Shown: in pieces, positions 322 through 23,207 of the stretch
Numbering within the stretch: the stretch's first letter is position 1
Layout of the letters: the number at the start of each line of letters is the position of its first letter
NCBI GenBank assembly: GCA_016840165.1
Contig: JAEOSU010000080.1
Coordinates: forward strand, 128,001 to 192,000
Direction of reading: 5' to 3'
Length of the DNA stretch: 64,000 nt
Origin: Promethearchaeota archaeon
Lineage (GTDB): Archaea; Asgardarchaeota; Lokiarchaeia; Sigyniarchaeales; SOKP01
Position numbers and translations under genes: made by a program
The notes under the pieces: model-generated
Told to the model about the DNA's origin: nothing
Databases searched by the model: none
What the model saw: the letters and a program-made list of their open reading frames with translations, nothing else

Positions 322-3300
322 CTATTTTAATTTCCAATGTTTTTTCCCTTTTTTAATTTCAACAATTATGATTCCTTTTCTTTCTAATTCTTTTAATTTA
401 AGCTGTAGGAATCGAGCATCCATCATATCTTTTATTTTCATCTTAAAAATTAATGAAGTGATTGGTTGCCATTCATTAGATAAGAATTTCAATATTTTAT
501 CAGTCGATATTATTGGTAATTGTGTTTGAGTCGTTTTCTTTTCAGTAACTTTTGGTTCTTTTTTGATGGGAACTTTAACGATATTCTTTTGCTCAATAAG
601 AGGAGTTTCTTGGTAGGGTTCTTTTACTTTTTCTTTTAATTCCTCAGCAGTAGCCTTATCATGTAAAAGAGATTCTTGAATAATAGTAATCATTTCATTC
701 TTTTTTAGGTTAGATGAAAGTTCGATATTCTTTTCCTCACAATATTCCATGAGTTCTCCTTTAGTCATATTTTTTAGGGTTTTTGGGGATAAAACTTCCA
801 TTTTTGAAATAGGTGCCTCCTTAGATTTCACAATTGTCTCAGTTTCTTTTAATTTATTGATGTATTGTTCAGACTCAATTTTTGGAGTTTCTGTAGGAGT
901 TATTTTAGCACCGATGGCATTTATCATTAAAGTTTCTAATTCAGAAACAGATATTTTATCCGTATATTTACTATTCCCCTGAGTAGCAATATTATAAATG
1001 CTTTCTACGAAGGTTGGAATATATTTCTCAATATAGCTTGCTCTTTTCTCTTTTTTGCTTAAGTTCGCTTTTCTGTTAAGATAAACACGTAATCTTCTGC
1101 CTATAGCCTCAAGACAATATTTTATTTCTTTTATTAATTCTGGATCATCTGCTAAAGCATTTTTTGACTGGGATTTGAACATAAGATGGACATAAGGACC
1201 TGAAACATTAATTAATAACAATATAGGTCCTTTAGGTAAATTATTATCATATACATCAAGTTTGTAATTCTTCCAATTGACAGTTTGAACTGCTTTAGTA
1301 ATAGCGCAATCAGCGTTATCTCTCAATTTTGGAGTTCGGTTGACATATCTAAATAAAACATCACTAGATCGTTTAGGAGTTTCAAGTTTTTTTGGATCAT
1401 TACAATAAGCTAATACCGCTTCTACGACATAAGCAAGTCCTTTTCCACTTGTAGGAGGTCTAGTCTCAGCAGATACAAAATCGTCATCCCGAGAATAATT
1501 ATCGGTAAAATATTCAAAAATCTGTTCATAGGATTTTAAGGATGGATTTACTGATAATTCTAATATATTTTGTATTGAATGCTTGAGTTTTTCCTTATCA
1601 ACACTTACTTCATTTAAATTGATCCCATTCATGATCTGCAGATTAAACTCGAGAAGATCTTGCTTTGTTAATTGTTTATCGTCTTTTAATTGAACCTGTT
1701 TAGCTAACTGTATTAGTTCTTCAATGGGCTCCTCAAAATCTTCAGTTGCTTCTGAAATTTTTAAACCTATTTCCTTAATTAATGTATTTTCTAAGACGGT
1801 GTCCCCCACAGGAATGGCTGTATCAGTGGGGGGTGCCATGTACTTTATAGACTTAAAAGCGTGGAATAATGAATTGAATTGTTTATTTGTAACTTCTGAT
1901 GGTTTCGATTTAGAGATTTGAACCTCTTCCACCAGATCTTCTAATTCTGATCGATTGATCACTTTTTTTAATTCAACTAAATTGTCCTTATTCGACTCAA
2001 TCAGTTTGTTTAAATCGTTTTTAATCTTTTGCTTTTCTTTATTGATGGCTTTGATATCGACTAGTAATTTATCAATATTTTGTTCTATCTTCTTTTGATC
2101 TTTTTTAGTCTCAGCTTTTTCAATACGATCGCTGTATTTTTTTATTTGTTTTTGGATTTTTTCTAAATCTTTATTAAATTGATTATAATCTGATATCTTT
2201 TCCCAGTATTTCTCTACTAAATCATGTGATTCAATTTTATAAATGATAAGTTTTTCTCGTGGTTTTTTAGATTTCCCAAAAACACGCTTTTCGAAAGTTA
2301 AGAATAGAATATCTTCATTCTTTTTTTCATTTTTTTGGATAAATCCCGACTTAAGAATGAGTAGGTCTAATTCATCCTCTAAACTTCTTTGGGCAGACTT
2401 TATAATTTTTTTTGCTGTATTAGAACTTACTCGGACGAAATTATCTTGTAAAAACGCAGAAACGGTTAGATTTTCGGATTTGGCGATTAAATCCTGCAAA
2501 TCCCCGATATTTGTTGAGGAAGGATGAGGTTTTGCATATTTTGGTTCCCTTGGAAATGAGGAGACTAAACGCTCGAACTTTAATTCCTCACCATAAGGAT
2601 CGATATAGATTATCGTTATATGAGGATTCATAAGTGCGGTTTGTCGAATGTAAATATCCGCTGAACCTCTTTTATATTTTGTATTTAAATAATTAAGTTT
2701 TATGTACGTGCCATGTAAAAAGGGACTGTCAACCTCAGTGGGATGTACTAGATATCTTTTTTCATTTTTAGATGTCGTGAAAAATTCTGAAACGGTGGCA
2801 TAGATGTTGTCACTCGATTTTGATACAGCAATAATTGGCTTACCAGTTGTGTTTTGTGAATCACTAAAAGCACTTGGAGCTCCGAATCCTTGACTACCTC
2901 TAGTCTGCTTTAATTCGAAACTTTTTGATGAAGCTAAGTATTTTCCGAATTTACGTAAATCATTTTTACCCATACCTATTCCATTATCAAAAATCTCGAA
3001 GGAATAACTCATAACATTTTTTTGAGATAACTCAGAAGTTAAAAAACTTGGTGCCTCTGACTCTCTGAGACGTATTATGACTAAAGGTTCTGTATCTATG
3101 ATGGATTCTACTGGCTTAATGATTTCATTCATATCTTCAATGATACGTAAAACTTCCTCTTCTACTTCTAATTCTGATTTGTCAACTATTTCTCCAGATT
3201 CTGTTTCTTTATCTTCGTTAAGTATTTTAGTTTCTTCTGAGATTTCTGCTGGACGGATACCCATCTCCTGCATGAGAACACTTTTAGCTTCATTATTTAA

Positions 3301-3573
3301 TGGTTTTTTTTCATCTTCATCCATTCCATCTTGAAGAATTGACAAATTTCGTAAAGTGAGTTCTTGATCTAATGAAAAGGCAATTTTTGAAGAATCTTTT
3401 TGTAATTCATTCCATTGAAAAGACTCAATTGCATCAAGAGCATTATCCATAAATTCTGCAGCGTATTGGGTATGTTTCCAATAACCAAATTCAAATCCTA
3501 CGAGCTGTGTGCGTTTCCTCATGAACTGAGCAATAGTTCCTTGCTCAATTCTTCCATCATCTTCAGAAGTAAT
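322..3573 (-). CDS. top6B: DNA topoisomerase VI subunit B, greatly expanded (insertions plus C-terminal SAP/HeH and winged helix); first ATG at 3522, probable ATT start at 3573
   Basis: GHKL motifs EFMDNALDA, DNGIG, QTRGSQGFG; KPHP; APP...IPVG; RYVNRTP; NWKNY. The frame stays open upstream of the ATG and encodes the homologous IEQGTIAQF segment. Confidence 0.9.
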   Translation of the reverse strand: MTSEDDGRIEQGTIAQFMRKRTQLVGFEFGYWKHTQYAAEFMDNALDAIESFQWNELQKDSSKIAFSLDQELTLRNLSILQDGMDEDEKKPLNNEAKSVLMQEMGIRPAEISEETKILNEDKETESGEIVDKSELEVEEEVLRIIEDMNEIIKPVESIIDTEPLVIIRLRESEAPSFLTSELSQKNVMSYSFEIFDNGIGMGKNDLRKFGKYLASSKSFELKQTRGSQGFGAPSAFSDSQNTTGKPIIAVSKSSDNIYATVSEFFTTSKNEKRYLVHPTEVDSPFLHGTYIKLNYLNTKYKRGSADIYIRQTALMNPHITIIYIDPYGEELKFERLVSSFPREPKYAKPHPSSTNIGDLQDLIAKSENLTVSAFLQDNFVRVSSNTAKKIIKSAQRSLEDELDLLILKSGFIQKNEKKNEDILFLTFEKRVFGKSKKPREKLIIYKIESHDLVEKYWEKISDYNQFNKDLEKIQKQIKKYSDRIEKAETKKDQKKIEQNIDKLLVDIKAINKEKQKIKNDLNKLIESNKDNLVELKKVINRSELEDLVEEVQISKSKPSEVTNKQFNSLFHAFKSIKYMAPPTDTAIPVGDTVLENTLIKEIGLKISEATEDFEEPIEELIQLAKQVQLKDDKQLTKQDLLEFNLQIMNGINLNEVSVDKEKLKHSIQNILELSVNPSLKSYEQIFEYFTDNYSRDDDFVSAETRPPTSGKGLAYVVEAVLAYCNDPKKLETPKRSSDVLFRYVNRTPKLRDNADCAITKAVQTVNWKNYKLDVYDNNLPKGPILLLINVSGPYVHLMFKSQSKNALADDPELIKEIKYCLEAIGRRLRVYLNRKANLSKKEKRASYIEKYIPTFVESIYNIATQGNSKYTDKISVSELETLMINAIGAKITPTETPKIESEQYINKLKETETIVKSKEAPISKMEVLSPKTLKNMTKGELMEYCEEKNIELSSNLKKNEMITIIQESLLHDKATAEELKEKVKEPYQETPLIEQKNIVKVPIKKEPKVTEKKTTQTQLPIISTDKILKFLSNEWQPITSLIFKMKIKDMMDARFLQLKLKELERKGIIIVEIKKGKKHWKLK

Positions 3574-14869: not shown

Positions 14870-15616
14870 ATGATGATGAAGCTCTTAGTAATCATTCCTG
14901 CATTTAATGAAGAGAAGACTATTGAGAATGTAGTAAAAAGTATTCCTAATATTCCTAATATAGATCAAGATGTGCTCGTTATCGATGATGGAAGCAGTGA
15001 TAATACTTTAATATATGCTAAAAAACAAGGAGCTGAGACTCGCTCAAATAGAAGAAATATGGGACTTGGTTCGGCTTTTAAATTAGGTTTAAATTATGTT
15101 TTACAAGAAAAAGTCGATTATATAGCAATTTTGGATGCTGATGGACAATATGAGCCATATGGATTAAAAAGACTCATCAATCCAATTATTAATGAAAATT
15201 ATGATTTGGTTATCGGTAATCGTTTCATTAATGGAGGATATTTTGAAGCAAGAACTATAAAACGTCTGGGAAATCTCTTTATTTCTACACTTATATCGAA
15301 AGTATTATTAAGATTAGAGATAGTCTATGATATTCAATCTTCTTTTAGGGCATTCAATAAAAAGTTAGCTATATTTATTTTAAACAATATTAACGCGAAA
15401 TATAATTATGCTCAAGAAATGTTTATTTTAGCTAGCCTATATAGATTCAGGATTAAGCAGATCCCGGTTATATGTAAAAAGAGACATTCAGGAAAATCCA
15501 GACTTATTAAAAACCCAGCTCTCCATATAGTTCGAATATTATGGGTTTGTCTTAAAACATTTATAAAAAATTTTTTTATAAGGAATTACTCTTTTCCCTC
15601 ATCAAGTCCTAATTGA
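14870..15616 (+). CDS. GT2 glycosyltransferase (DPM1-like)
   Basis: IPAFNEE, DDGSSD, DADGQ, IGNRF. Confidence 0.9.
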   Translation: MMMKLLVIIPAFNEEKTIENVVKSIPNIPNIDQDVLVIDDGSSDNTLIYAKKQGAETRSNRRNMGLGSAFKLGLNYVLQEKVDYIAILDADGQYEPYGLKRLINPIINENYDLVIGNRFINGGYFEARTIKRLGNLFISTLISKVLLRLEIVYDIQSSFRAFNKKLAIFILNNINAKYNYAQEMFILASLYRFRIKQIPVICKKRHSGKSRLIKNPALHIVRILWVCLKTFIKNFFIRNYSFPSSSPN

Positions 15617-16344
15617 GAGATCATCATTCTTTTTAAATCCTGTCTATTTTTTGGCAGCCCAAACATATCTGCATATTTGTCTGTAGTCATTAATTCATGG
15701 CTTCTTCCTTTTTTTTCTGCAGATATTAATTCATTATCAAGGAGATACTTAACATGTTCGTATGCACCAGTACCTCTAATTTTTATGACAGTTGACTTTA
15801 AAATTGGTTGCTTTAAGGCAATTATAGTAAGGGTTCTTAAATACTTTTCCGCTATCGCCCCACCTTTAGTAAATTTGGAAATAGTTTCTGTATATTCCGG
15901 TCTTAGCTGCATTTGGTAGCGCTCTCCAACTTGCGCTATGACAAGCGCACTCGAGCGATCTAAATATTCATATGCAAGTTCGGTGATTAATTCTTCCACC
16001 AACTTTTTTGAGATTTCTAGTTTAGTGGCAATTTCTTCTATATCCAATGGACTTCCAGCAGCATAAAGAGCTCCTTCAATTAAATTTTTTTGGATAATCC
16101 GAAATTCTTTATCTTCATCTAAAGTTTCTTTTTCTATTTTTTCTTCTCCAATATCCATTTCATCGCTGTCCTCACTCTCAATATCTTCGATTTGCTCACT
16201 ATCTTGATCAATAGTATCATTTATTTCAGTATCAGATTCATTATTTTCATGGGATCCTTGTTCTGGATCAGATATGGATTCAACTTCTTTTTGATTTTCA
16301 TCTTTTAAATATTCCTCAATTTGATTTTCTTCCTCATTATCCAT
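15586..16344 (-). CDS. scpB: SMC-Scp complex subunit ScpB with acidic N-terminal extension
   Basis: IEGALYAAG, TLTIIALKQPI, KIRG, TTDKYADMFGL; operon with scpA and smc. Confidence 0.92.
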   Translation of the reverse strand: MDNEEENQIEEYLKDENQKEVESISDPEQGSHENNESDTEINDTIDQDSEQIEDIESEDSDEMDIGEEKIEKETLDEDKEFRIIQKNLIEGALYAAGSPLDIEEIATKLEISKKLVEELITELAYEYLDRSSALVIAQVGERYQMQLRPEYTETISKFTKGGAIAEKYLRTLTIIALKQPILKSTVIKIRGTGAYEHVKYLLDNELISAEKKGRSHELMTTDKYADMFGLPKNRQDLKRMMISQLGLDEGKE

Positions 16345-16359
16345 GGTTTAATCTCCCAA

Positions 16360-17355
16360 TTATCTTATATTAATTATAAAATCCCTAAAATCCTCTTCCT
16401 GGTTTAAGGTTAACTTATTTCCCGTTGAGAGAAACATTAATGCTAAAAACATCCTTACAAATGCAAATCTTCTTCCAATATCAGATGGTTCTTCATTTTT
16501 AATTATTTGAGCTAAATCAAAAAAAGTAGTCTCTACACCTTCTAAGTTTATTTTTGCTTTTATTCGATTAAACCAGGACTCATGTAATTCCTCTATTGAT
16601 TGTTCTCTTCCACTGATATGCTTTAATAATTCTTTTGGTAACTGAGCTTTTGATCTCATCTGGATTTTTTGTTCTTTTAATTGTTCTCTTCGTAATCGTC
16701 TCCGCCTTAATTTCTCTTTATTTTGCATTGTTTCTATTATAGCAGAGCGCATAGCTTCGAATAACTCCTCTTTTGTTGCAATAAGCATTTTTGGCTGCAA
16801 TGGTTGAGATAATGTTTTCGGGATGGTTCTAGCATGCGATTGCCTGAACTTTTCGAGCTCCTCTTTTTTCTGTATTTCCTCCTCTTGTTTAATGATGCTC
16901 GAGATTTTATAGTGATGTAATGATGCAGAGGTTTTGAGAGCAATTCCTGAAATTTTGTAATTTATTAGACTTTCATGGAGCATGTTATCGAAAAATTTGT
17001 CTACCAGTGAAGCTAAGTCGTAAAATGCTACATTTGAATCTTTTGCGAGCTCCGTATCCAACAAACTCGAATAAGGAGGTTTTTGCCAGAATTTCAATTC
17101 CATTTTTTCCTTATACAATAAAGCAGGGTCATCATCTTCCTCTACTCCCGCAATTAATTCTTCTTCTAACTCAACTTCTTGCGTTCGATCAATAAAATCC
17201 GGGTGAGAAACAATCTCCTCCAGTAATTTAATTATATCTTTCTTTTTTGATTTAGAAGGAATTGTAATATTATTTTTTCCAGCAAAATCTCTTAATTGTG
17301 CAACAGTCCATTCAGTAAATTTGTTTTCTTCTTTAGCTTCACTTTCTTTTGAAAT
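16360..17355 (-). CDS. scpA: Kleisin ScpA with N-terminal SAP/HeH extension (probable ATT start at 17355; ORF track starts at 17118)
   Basis: DLASLVDKFF..INYKISGIAL..SASL..YK (N-terminal kleisin domain); FLALMFL...KLTLNQEEDFRDF (C-terminal winged helix); frame open to 17370 with AGGTGA 7 nt before ATT. Confidence 0.8.
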   Translation of the reverse strand: MSKESEAKEENKFTEWTVAQLRDFAGKNNITIPSKSKKKDIIKLLEEIVSHPDFIDRTQEVELEEELIAGVEEDDDPALLYKEKMELKFWQKPPYSSLLDTELAKDSNVAFYDLASLVDKFFDNMLHESLINYKISGIALKTSASLHHYKISSIIKQEEEIQKKEELEKFRQSHARTIPKTLSQPLQPKMLIATKEELFEAMRSAIIETMQNKEKLRRRRLRREQLKEQKIQMRSKAQLPKELLKHISGREQSIEELHESWFNRIKAKINLEGVETTFFDLAQIIKNEEPSDIGRRFAFVRMFLALMFLSTGNKLTLNQEEDFRDFIINIR

Positions 17356-17387
17356 TTCTATTTCACCTAATTAAAATGAATACTTAA

Positions 17388-22016: not shown

Positions 22017-23207
22017 TTATTTGCCAAATATGGAATCTACAATCGCCTTAAGCTGTTTAGGATTAATAAATAAATAAAAAGATGTATCATCTGAAATCTT
22101 GCTAAAGATAGAACCCCTTTCAAATTTAAAACTCTTTTTAGAGATATTGATTAATCCCACACTCCTTAAATTTCGCAAAATGTCATTATATTGAGTTTTA
22201 CTGGCAATATATTCTATTGATTCACATGAGATGATATATAACTCTTTTAGCTTTTTATTAGATATGTAGTAATTAGAATTTCTTAAGAAAAAGTTTGCTA
22301 GATTATCCAGAAATATAATAATAAGGAGTTCTTCTTCAGAAATATAGGAAAGCAACGAAAATTCGTCTGAAATTTGGATGGAGTCAAATTGATTTTGAAT
22401 GAGTGAGATAAAATCTAAATGACTGATATATTTTGGATCTTTAAGAAGAGGATATAATTCTTTAAATATTTCAATTCCTTTTCCAGGCACGGGTACATAA
22501 TGTTCAAAAATTAAGTCTGTGATGTATTCAATCAATTCAATATCTATTTCGTGCATAAAAGTTAATGAAACTCTTTGTTTTAGAATATCTAATAATTCAG
22601 AATAAGAATAGAATTCTAATTTTTTTTTGTAATCAAACTCATTTAAAAGATCAAAAGTCTCACTTCGATTTACTCTATTTACTGTAGAAATTATTGTTGT
22701 TTTCGTCTCTTTTCCATAATTCAAAAATTTTTTGAAGTTTTGAGGTTTTAAATCTTCAATATTATTAAAAACCATAATCAACGGATTAGTAATTTTACTG
22801 GTTATCAGTTTAAATGTATTCCATAACTCAGATACACTAGCCTTTAAAAATGAAGTTAAATTTAGCTCAAAATTGCACATAAACGAGAGATCTGAGATTA
22901 AACCGAAAAAAATTTCATGCAGATTTTTGTCTTTACAATCTACACTAACTTCATAGATTATTGAATCCAATTGATTTTGATAGATTAGGTCTTTAGTAAC
23001 TTTATTTATTATAACTTTTTTACCTATTCCTTGCAGTCCTTGATATAGGACATTGCAACAGAAATTATCCGATAATGAATCGTTTAGAAGAGATTTAAGA
23101 TAATTCTCTTCTTTAGCTCGATATAATATTTTTGGAGGGACATAATTAACATCAAATAATGCTTTAGGACCAATATAATCATTAAATGTTTCAGATTTTA
23201 CTATCAT
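22017..23207 (-). CDS. Divergent Cdc6/Orc1-like AAA+ protein with degenerate Walker motifs
   Basis: YVPPKILYR.KE, GLQGIGKK, VDC, YSYSELLDILKQR, C-terminal winged helix (L.NLRSVGLI). Confidence 0.75.
   Translation of the reverse strand: MIVKSETFNDYIGPKALFDVNYVPPKILYRAKEENYLKSLLNDSLSDNFCCNVLYQGLQGIGKKVIINKVTKDLIYQNQLDSIIYEVSVDCKDKNLHEIFFGLISDLSFMCNFELNLTSFLKASVSELWNTFKLITSKITNPLIMVFNNIEDLKPQNFKKFLNYGKETKTTIISTVNRVNRSETFDLLNEFDYKKKLEFYSYSELLDILKQRVSLTFMHEIDIELIEYITDLIFEHYVPVPGKGIEIFKELYPLLKDPKYISHLDFISLIQNQFDSIQISDEFSLLSYISEEELLIIIFLDNLANFFLRNSNYYISNKKLKELYIISCESIEYIASKTQYNDILRNLRSVGLINISKKSFKFERGSIFSKISDDTSFYLFINPKQLKAIVDSIFGK

Follow-up and report, generated by a model that had tools for sequence, protein, structure and literature searches.

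Where does an SMC complex hold its DNA, and how has evolution added extra DNA contacts to it? Kleisins are normally treated as the connectors of such complexes, DNA being bound via their partner subunits. The locus described here raises both questions, as an earlier note on this DNA had proposed that the apparent gap between smc and scpA hides a DNA-binding-type domain belonging to the kleisin itself. No description of a prokaryotic kleisin carrying a SAP or HeH domain was found in the literature, and recently published surveys of Asgard SMC complexes mention neither HeH nor ScpA. In the archaeal lineage closest to eukaryotes, a kleisin that itself bears a domain of DNA-binding type would offer a simple and testable system in which to address the two questions.

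The window, i.e., the whole stretch of DNA that was analysed, comprises 64,000 nucleotides of a Promethearchaeota archaeon (GCA_016840165.1, contig JAEOSU010000080.1, positions 128,001-192,000; C63:128001-192000 of genome G000). The genome measures 3.6 Mb, has a GC content of 31.6%, and is 99.7% complete. The features discussed below are collected in Table 1. Directly upstream of smc lies an ORF of 396 aa (22017-23207, minus strand) that gave no Pfam match at E<=0.01.

Table 1. Positions and supporting evidence of the features discussed; positions are those of the window unless a contig (C) or locus (L) is named.
Feature	Position	Strand	Basis
Top6B, ~1083 aa	322..3573	minus	carries Rho_N/HeH-type domain
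Rho_N/HeH-type domain near Top6B C-terminus	676..777	minus	Pfam Rho_N E=2.9e-7, 30.8 bits (cut-off 24.9)
ScpB	15586..16344	minus	Pfam SMC_ScpB 3e-35 over residues 88-238, TIGR00281
scpA (kleisin), 331 codons + stop, probable ATT start	16360..17355	minus	open frame; start fixed by orthologue comparison
Kleisin C-terminal winged-helix domain (predicted)	16363..16596	minus	Pfam SMC_ScpA, AF2
Kleisin N-terminal helical domain (from KFWQKPP) and long central helices (predicted)	16636..17100	minus	AF2 helices 95-126, 133-173, 195-235
SHP-D/E-F-x-D-R motif and acidic linker of ScpA, residues 53-85, predicted disordered	17101..17199	minus	AF2, conservation
HeH/SAP-type domain of ScpA, residues ~13-52 (helix 18-27, extended basic loop, helix 38-49)	17200..17319	minus	Pfam clan, AF2, fold search
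Probable ATT initiation codon of scpA	17353..17355	minus	orthologue comparison
Shine-Dalgarno sequence AGGTGA	17363..17368	minus	7 nt before ATT (GGTG 8 nt before); complementary to 16S 3' end
SMC, ~1487 aa	17388..21851	minus	SMC_N 2e-46
Gelsolin-repeat protein ending in HeH/SAP-type domain	C104:52321-53235 (L065:522-1436)	minus	HMM of ScpA domain
GIFT/ABC_transp_aux-like protein ending in HeH/SAP-type domain	C30:285911-287089 (L066:512-1690)	minus	HMM of ScpA domain

Reading frame and selection in the scpA extension

Between the TAA at 17373-17371 and the stop at 16362-16360, scpA has an uninterrupted minus-strand frame of 336 codons. Its first ATG, GTG, or TTG is the TTG at 17118, with 84 codons ahead of it; when the genome's 1848 open frames with 250 or more codons are ranked, this start-free stretch is the fifth longest. 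Positions 17119-17355 run from the ATT taken here as the start codon through the base before this first canonical start. A search with the 336-aa frame returned 355 relatives, for which every taxon label present was Asgard (Promethearchaeota or Lokiarchaeia-type); most of them are 329-347 aa long, and their matches extend over 98-100% of the frame and take in the N-terminal domain. Full-length, extended ScpA was present in all 68 sampled genomes of the window's family, and 45 distinct orthologous sequences contained zero stops and zero frameshifts in the extension.

Selection was assessed by the Nei-Gojobori method, for the window against its five nearest relatives and as the median over 820 pairs. 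Against the nearest relatives, dN/dS was 0.05-0.08 for the HeH segment (pS 0.49-0.60), 0.03-0.07 for the linker, and 0.02-0.04 for the kleisin core, and the corresponding medians were 0.13, 0.15, and 0.08. Comparison of orthologous sequences thus confirms that the extension is translated and under purifying selection. The earlier note, whose quoted peptide is exact, had regarded the smc-scpA gap as an open in-frame extension of scpA and had made this view depend on conservation and translation; on both counts it holds.

Gene callers nevertheless shortened the closest relatives (89-96% identity; P0001, P0004-P0011, P0018) at internal TTG or GTG codons. This is what would be expected if the extension were an untranslated or decaying remnant and functional ScpA began at TTG 17118 or ATG 17100, as these programs assume; the extension is indeed without any ATG, GTG, or TTG, and the shortened product would equal a ScpA of standard length. 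A canonical start is absent in four of the five nearest relatives too. What decides against a remnant is the low dN/dS of the HeH segment at saturating synonymous change, together with the intact frames of all 45 sequences, a Shine-Dalgarno sequence that is conserved at the right spacing, the presence, in orthologues, of ATG or GTG at the very codon that is ATT in the window (see below), and the lack of conservation of the internal Met at 17100, with which L, I, T, or V is aligned in relatives. The remnant reading is largely refuted already by these observations, and we consider it hardly credible. A short isoform initiated at ATG 17100 and shared among relatives is unlikely because this Met is not conserved, and the idea was set aside. 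An SMC-ScpA fusion by frameshift or readthrough was rejected, as scpA is read in another frame than smc and has its TAA past the smc stop (17390-17388).

Start codon of scpA

After the TAA stop, the minus strand reads TTA GGT GAA ATA GAA ATT TCA, a sequence that contains both the Shine-Dalgarno hexamer and the ATT listed in Table 1. The 3' end of the 16S rRNA of this genome, located on C49, is GGATCACCTCCT and carries the anti-Shine-Dalgarno sequence, and genome-wide the spacing of GGTG upstream of likely starts peaks at 7-8 nt. To locate the start, 45 distinct orthologous start regions of the family were compared at the homologous codon, 15-16 codons before a conserved Trp. This codon is ATT in 26 regions, ATA in seven, and ATC in three; it is GTT or GTA with an ATC one codon upstream in four (the ATC at 4 nt spacing), and GTT only in one; and it is GTG in one (L037, annotated as beginning MPEE), ATG in two (L012, L056), and AAA with an ATG one codon downstream in one (L020). 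In the 36 regions with ATT, ATA, or ATC, the codon lies 6-8 nt after GGTG or, in three regions, 4 nt after AGGTA. The ATG or GTG is likely the start in the four regions that have one (L037, L012, L056, L020), and the start is uncertain in the five with GTT or GTA at the homologous codon.

An SD-like GGTG or AGGT stands upstream of the homologous start in 43 of the 45 regions, in any reading frame. GGTG is kept whether or not it is in frame and is therefore to be read as a Shine-Dalgarno sequence and not as a start codon. An in-frame stop lies one to three codons upstream of the ATT, ATA, or ATC in L010, L014, L017, L021, L032, and most of genus g12, which leaves no other start there. Because of the Shine-Dalgarno spacing, the orthologous start codons, and these upstream stops, the start of scpA is probably the ATT at 17355; the sole alternative is the ATA at 17361-17359, two codons further upstream. 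Taken together, the spacing, the canonical starts found at the same codon in orthologues, and the lack of an alternative start in the regions compared point to near-cognate (AUH) initiation led by a Shine-Dalgarno sequence.

The ATT and its Shine-Dalgarno sequence are retained when scpA does not directly follow smc (L033/L034, and loci without smc), and coupling to smc translation is therefore not required. Termination-reinitiation as a requirement was accordingly rejected, the two elements being kept behind another gene or a long spacer. The inserted gene in the near relative (L033:2077-2691, L034:1572-2165), situated between smc and scpA, encodes 197-204 aa and has no Pfam match.

A genome-wide scan considered codons within 12 codons of an in-frame stop that were preceded by no canonical start and followed by 150 or more open codons. 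GGTG was found 7-8 nt upstream of 19 ATT and 10 ATA codons, compared with 33 ATG, 16 TTG, and five GTG codons, and with 0-4 occurrences for each of the control codons AAT, TTA, TTT, TAT, and GAA. Judged from these counts, ATT and ATA look like regular start codons throughout this genome. Reviews list only AUG, GUG, and UUG starts for archaea (PMC7531240), and no description of AUU or AUA starts in Asgard archaea was found in the literature. Gene finders miss the HeH domain because scpA starts at ATT; more generally, automated annotation shortens ScpA and other proteins of these genomes because their starts are ATT, ATA, or ATC, so that inventories of the domains of Asgard chromatin proteins are incomplete.

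As a side observation on the translation apparatus, ARAGORN reported 11 tRNAs in the genome, or 22 when introns were allowed. It reported no tRNA-Met, and a crude anticodon-stem pattern matched T-loops only. The low number suggests many intron-containing or atypical tRNA genes.

Domain architecture of the extended ScpA

When the 84-aa extension was compared with Pfam, it matched HeH (E=1.9e-5, 24.7 bits; cut-off 28.9), Rho_N (2.6e-4, 21.3 bits; cut-off 24.9), and SAP (0.15), so that the window's own scores are below the curated cut-offs. Among 45 full-length homologues, Ish1 was matched in 39 (best 2e-8), Rho_N in 27, HeH in 26, and SAP in eight; the four profiles belong to one clan. AF2, run on the whole of ScpA and on residues 1-60, predicted two helices joined by the extended basic loop (Table 1) at a pLDDT of ~80-89, i.e., the arrangement of two helices and an extended loop of ~10 residues within ~35-40 residues that defines the fold of the HeH clan. 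The structural neighbours of this model were the C-terminus of T4 endonuclease VII, the N-terminus of Rho, the SAP domain of CDNF/MANF, the LEM domain of emerin, and the SAP domains of PIAS1, SLX4, Tho1, FAN1, and Ku70 (Z 4.5-6.7). Each single match is weak (Foldseek E of at least 0.6, Z of at most 6.7), which is expected because the domain has only 40 residues. Foldseek gave no match against the PDB at E<=0.001, and searching PDB sequences with a profile of the HeH alignment returned nothing significant. Residues that are invariant or nearly so include L21, F24, N28, I30, K35, K38, and I41, and some forms of ScpA carry two tandem HeH domains (P0092, P0103). Fold prediction and profile matches support membership of the HeH/SAP/LEM/Rho_N clan, in agreement with the helix-extension-helix signature that had been noticed in the peptide, and SAP, LEM, and Rho_N structures dominate the fold search.

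Just after the domain stands the SHP-D/E-F-x-D-R motif, in which P52, F54, D56, and R57 are invariant or nearly so. The acidic linker described in the earlier note follows: residues 60-83 are acidic, and their AF2 pLDDT is below 50.

In its remaining architecture and its gene context, the protein is a kleisin. Pfam SMC_ScpA matched residues 233-334 of the 336-aa frame weakly (E=0.007; best 3e-5 in homologues), and AF2 predicted a winged helix at residues 254-330, composed of three helices and a beta hairpin (315-330). The predicted combination of an N-terminal helical domain and a C-terminal winged helix, encoded with SMC and kite partners, is that expected of a kleisin. The window has the order smc-scpA-scpB, as do most of the loci fetched from two families; a few loci lack smc inside the 1.5-kb flank. 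In other Asgard families, the ScpA frames are 225-262 aa long and match the kleisin core only (profile positions ~83-170), which bears out the assertion that standard ScpA is without this domain. Database names of the extended homologues are mostly 'hypothetical' or 'kleisin family', and some bear automatic HeH/Ish1 labels. The neighbouring ScpB also begins with an extension, a strongly acidic one of ~85 residues (residues 1-85; 16090-16344, minus strand), ahead of its ScpB domain (88-238).

The SMC partner and its apparently missing hinge

The SMC encoded next to the extended kleisin has canonical heads, and its PDB matches are to SMC heads only (best 5xei, at 6e-121). Residues 550-1000 gave no match to SMC_hinge (PF06470) even at E<=10, and no hinge match was obtained among PDB structures; by sequence, the protein therefore appears to depart from a canonical SMC with a central hinge. 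The sole PF06470 match of the genome is to a separate protein of 1152 aa on C54. In all five genomes checked (G000, G032, G174, G177, G236), a ~1490-aa SMC without PF06470 adjoins the extended kleisin. An additional canonical, hinge-bearing SMC of ~1200 aa occurs elsewhere in three of them (G032, G174, G177), so that the two systems coexist in some genera; no such protein was found in the 99.7%-complete genome of the window, where the hinge-less protein is apparently the sole SMC of condensin type. Other Asgard families encode a short ScpA next to a hinge-bearing SMC of ~1200 aa.

The earlier note had suggested that the HeH domain might replace the DNA binding normally provided by the hinge. 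The co-occurrence of extended kleisin and hinge-less SMC fits this suggestion, with the qualification that it represents one clade and a single event and is therefore not independent evidence. Any compensatory role of the domain for the missing hinge is accordingly put forward here as a conjecture from that association.

Further copies of the domain in the genome

Top6B in the same window had been said to carry this type of domain, and its Rho_N match is indeed above the cut-off (Table 1); the Top6B and ScpA domains align at 20% identity. An HMM built from the ScpA domain found two further copies in the genome, both C-terminal, on the gelsolin-repeat and GIFT/ABC_transp_aux-like proteins of Table 1. 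Of the proposal that ScpA and Top6B share a chromatin-targeting tag, the part concerning domain type stands for both proteins, and the part concerning chromatin calls for a qualification, as the domain is not confined to chromosome proteins. A fusion of gelsolin repeats with HeH could connect actin regulation with the ligand of the HeH domain.

Several observations on top6B itself are recorded here. It starts at an ATT (3571-3573, minus strand) that follows AGGT by 7 nt and lies 17 codons upstream of the first ATG (3522). For most of the family, ATT or ATC stands at the homologous codon; L068 and L088 have ATG there, L077 has GTG, and in L080 a TAA directly precedes the ATT. The N-terminus of Top6B is split over two frames in five relatives (G116:C199, G299:C98, G322:C185, G324:C43, G326:C5), query residues 1-38 being found in a frame of 42-56 aa and residues 35-99 in the long frame; this split could be a frameshift, an insertion, or recoding.

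Proposed function of the HeH module

HeH-clan domains can bind protein (LEM-BAF, MANF/CDNF SAP-BiP) or RNA (Rho), and the fold as such is compatible with different ligands. The most informative observation concerns the sister genera, where comparison of orthologues shows that the HeH module is replaced by other basic modules at the same N-terminal position, namely, a C2HC-type zinc finger with a K-rich stretch (L097 of G177; L023) or H1-like, K/S/T-rich tails of 60-170 aa (L022, L024-L030, L098 of G032). An acidic stretch and a conserved P-x-I-K-E-V-I motif come after each of these modules. This interchange of different basic modules is the strongest argument at hand for a nucleic-acid-binding role of the position.

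The gelsolin-domain and GIFT-like proteins are not obvious DNA proteins, and the presence of the domain on them keeps alive a reading in which the HeH module is a protein-protein adaptor that would dock ScpA, Top6B, and these two proteins onto a single shared partner or scaffold. The best structural neighbours include CDNF/MANF SAP-BiP complexes and emerin LEM-BAF, and the strongly conserved SHP-E/D-F-x-D-R after the domain has the look of a docking motif. The K-rich H1-like tails and the zinc finger of the sister genera are, however, typical nucleic-acid binders, and the conserved basic loop (K35, K38) fits contacts with the backbone; on balance, we regard an adaptor function as unlikely. A second possibility is that the module binds RNA or single-stranded nucleic acid like the N-terminal region of Rho and couples the SMC complex to transcripts or R-loops, as might be read from the Rho_N profile in 27 of the 45 homologues and from the Rho structures among the top neighbours. 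In Rho, RNA is bound by the adjoining OB fold and not by the HeH helices. No OB fold follows the HeH domain in the AF2 model of ScpA, and the best family-level matches are Ish1 and HeH and not Rho_N, which makes an RNA-binding role quite improbable.

We therefore favour, at a probability of roughly 0.6, the reading in which scpA is a 331-codon, ATT-started gene and its HeH module is a flexibly tethered anchor for double-stranded DNA (chromatin) next to the head/neck DNA clamp of a long, hinge-less SMC; support for DNA binding by this domain is indirect and comes from the conserved K35/K38 loop and the interchange with other basic modules. In SMC-ScpAB, the N-terminal domain of the kleisin binds the SMC neck and its C-terminal winged helix binds the SMC cap. 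Translation would begin at the near-cognate ATT, positioned by the AGGTGA Shine-Dalgarno sequence 7 nt upstream, and would yield a protein of four parts: the HeH domain of ~40 residues with its conserved basic loop (K35, K38); the conserved short motif, followed by an acidic, disordered linker of ~30 residues; an ordinary kleisin N-terminal domain; and the central helices with the C-terminal winged helix. The HeH module may thus provide a kleisin-borne DNA contact for loading of the complex or for its anchoring in loop extrusion, and the acidic linker might mask the module until the complex engages DNA.

On a wider scale, it may tentatively be proposed that this Asgard order runs a distinct SMC machine, in which a ~1490-aa SMC with a replaced hinge would work with a kleisin bearing an interchangeable N-terminal DNA-binding cassette (HeH, tandem HeH, zinc finger, or H1-like tail), and in which a deliberately weak AUH start would set expression. 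This is a doubtful generalisation at present; if it is true, the kleisin, and neither the hinge nor the accessory subunits, would hold the fixed DNA anchor of the complex.

Comparison with known systems

Initiation at AUU is known from the bacterial genes infC (IF3) and pcnB of E. coli. Like these, scpA has a near-cognate AUU behind a good Shine-Dalgarno sequence that is conserved across relatives; unlike them, it is archaeal, its codon drifts among ATT, ATA, and ATC, and the use of AUH codons in the genome looks genome-wide and not confined to one regulatory gene.

With the SMC-ScpAB complexes (ScpA of Bacillus subtilis; Pyrococcus 5xei, 5xns, 4i99), the system shares the kleisin N-terminal helical domain, central region, and C-terminal winged helix, the smc-scpA-scpB gene order, and the ScpB kite. 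It differs from them in the ~85 extra N-terminal residues of ScpA (HeH domain and acidic linker) and the ATT start, in an SMC that exceeds the usual length by ~300 aa and in which no hinge was detected, and in the weak match of ScpA to the Pfam model. The N-terminal module itself resembles other HeH-clan domains (Tho1 SAP, 1h1j; the SAP domains of Ku70, PIAS1, SLX4, and FAN1; the LEM domains of yeast Heh1/Heh2 and emerin; the N-terminus of Rho) in its length of ~35-40 residues, its helix-loop-helix arrangement, its conserved Leu/Ile pattern, and its basic residues before helix 2, whereas the ScpA copy is fused to a kleisin and the score of the window's copy is below the curated cut-off of each family.

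DNA anchors at the kleisin are known from eukaryotes, namely, the 'safety belt' of condensin Brn1-Ycg1 and Nse4 with Nse1/Nse3 in SMC5/6. These would share with the proposed system a DNA contact that lies close to the SMC heads, on the kleisin or at it, a likeness that is a functional analogy only and implies no homology, and they differ from it in that the contact is made by a HAWK or KITE partner or by a peptide belt, where the Asgard protein would use a small domain inside the kleisin chain.
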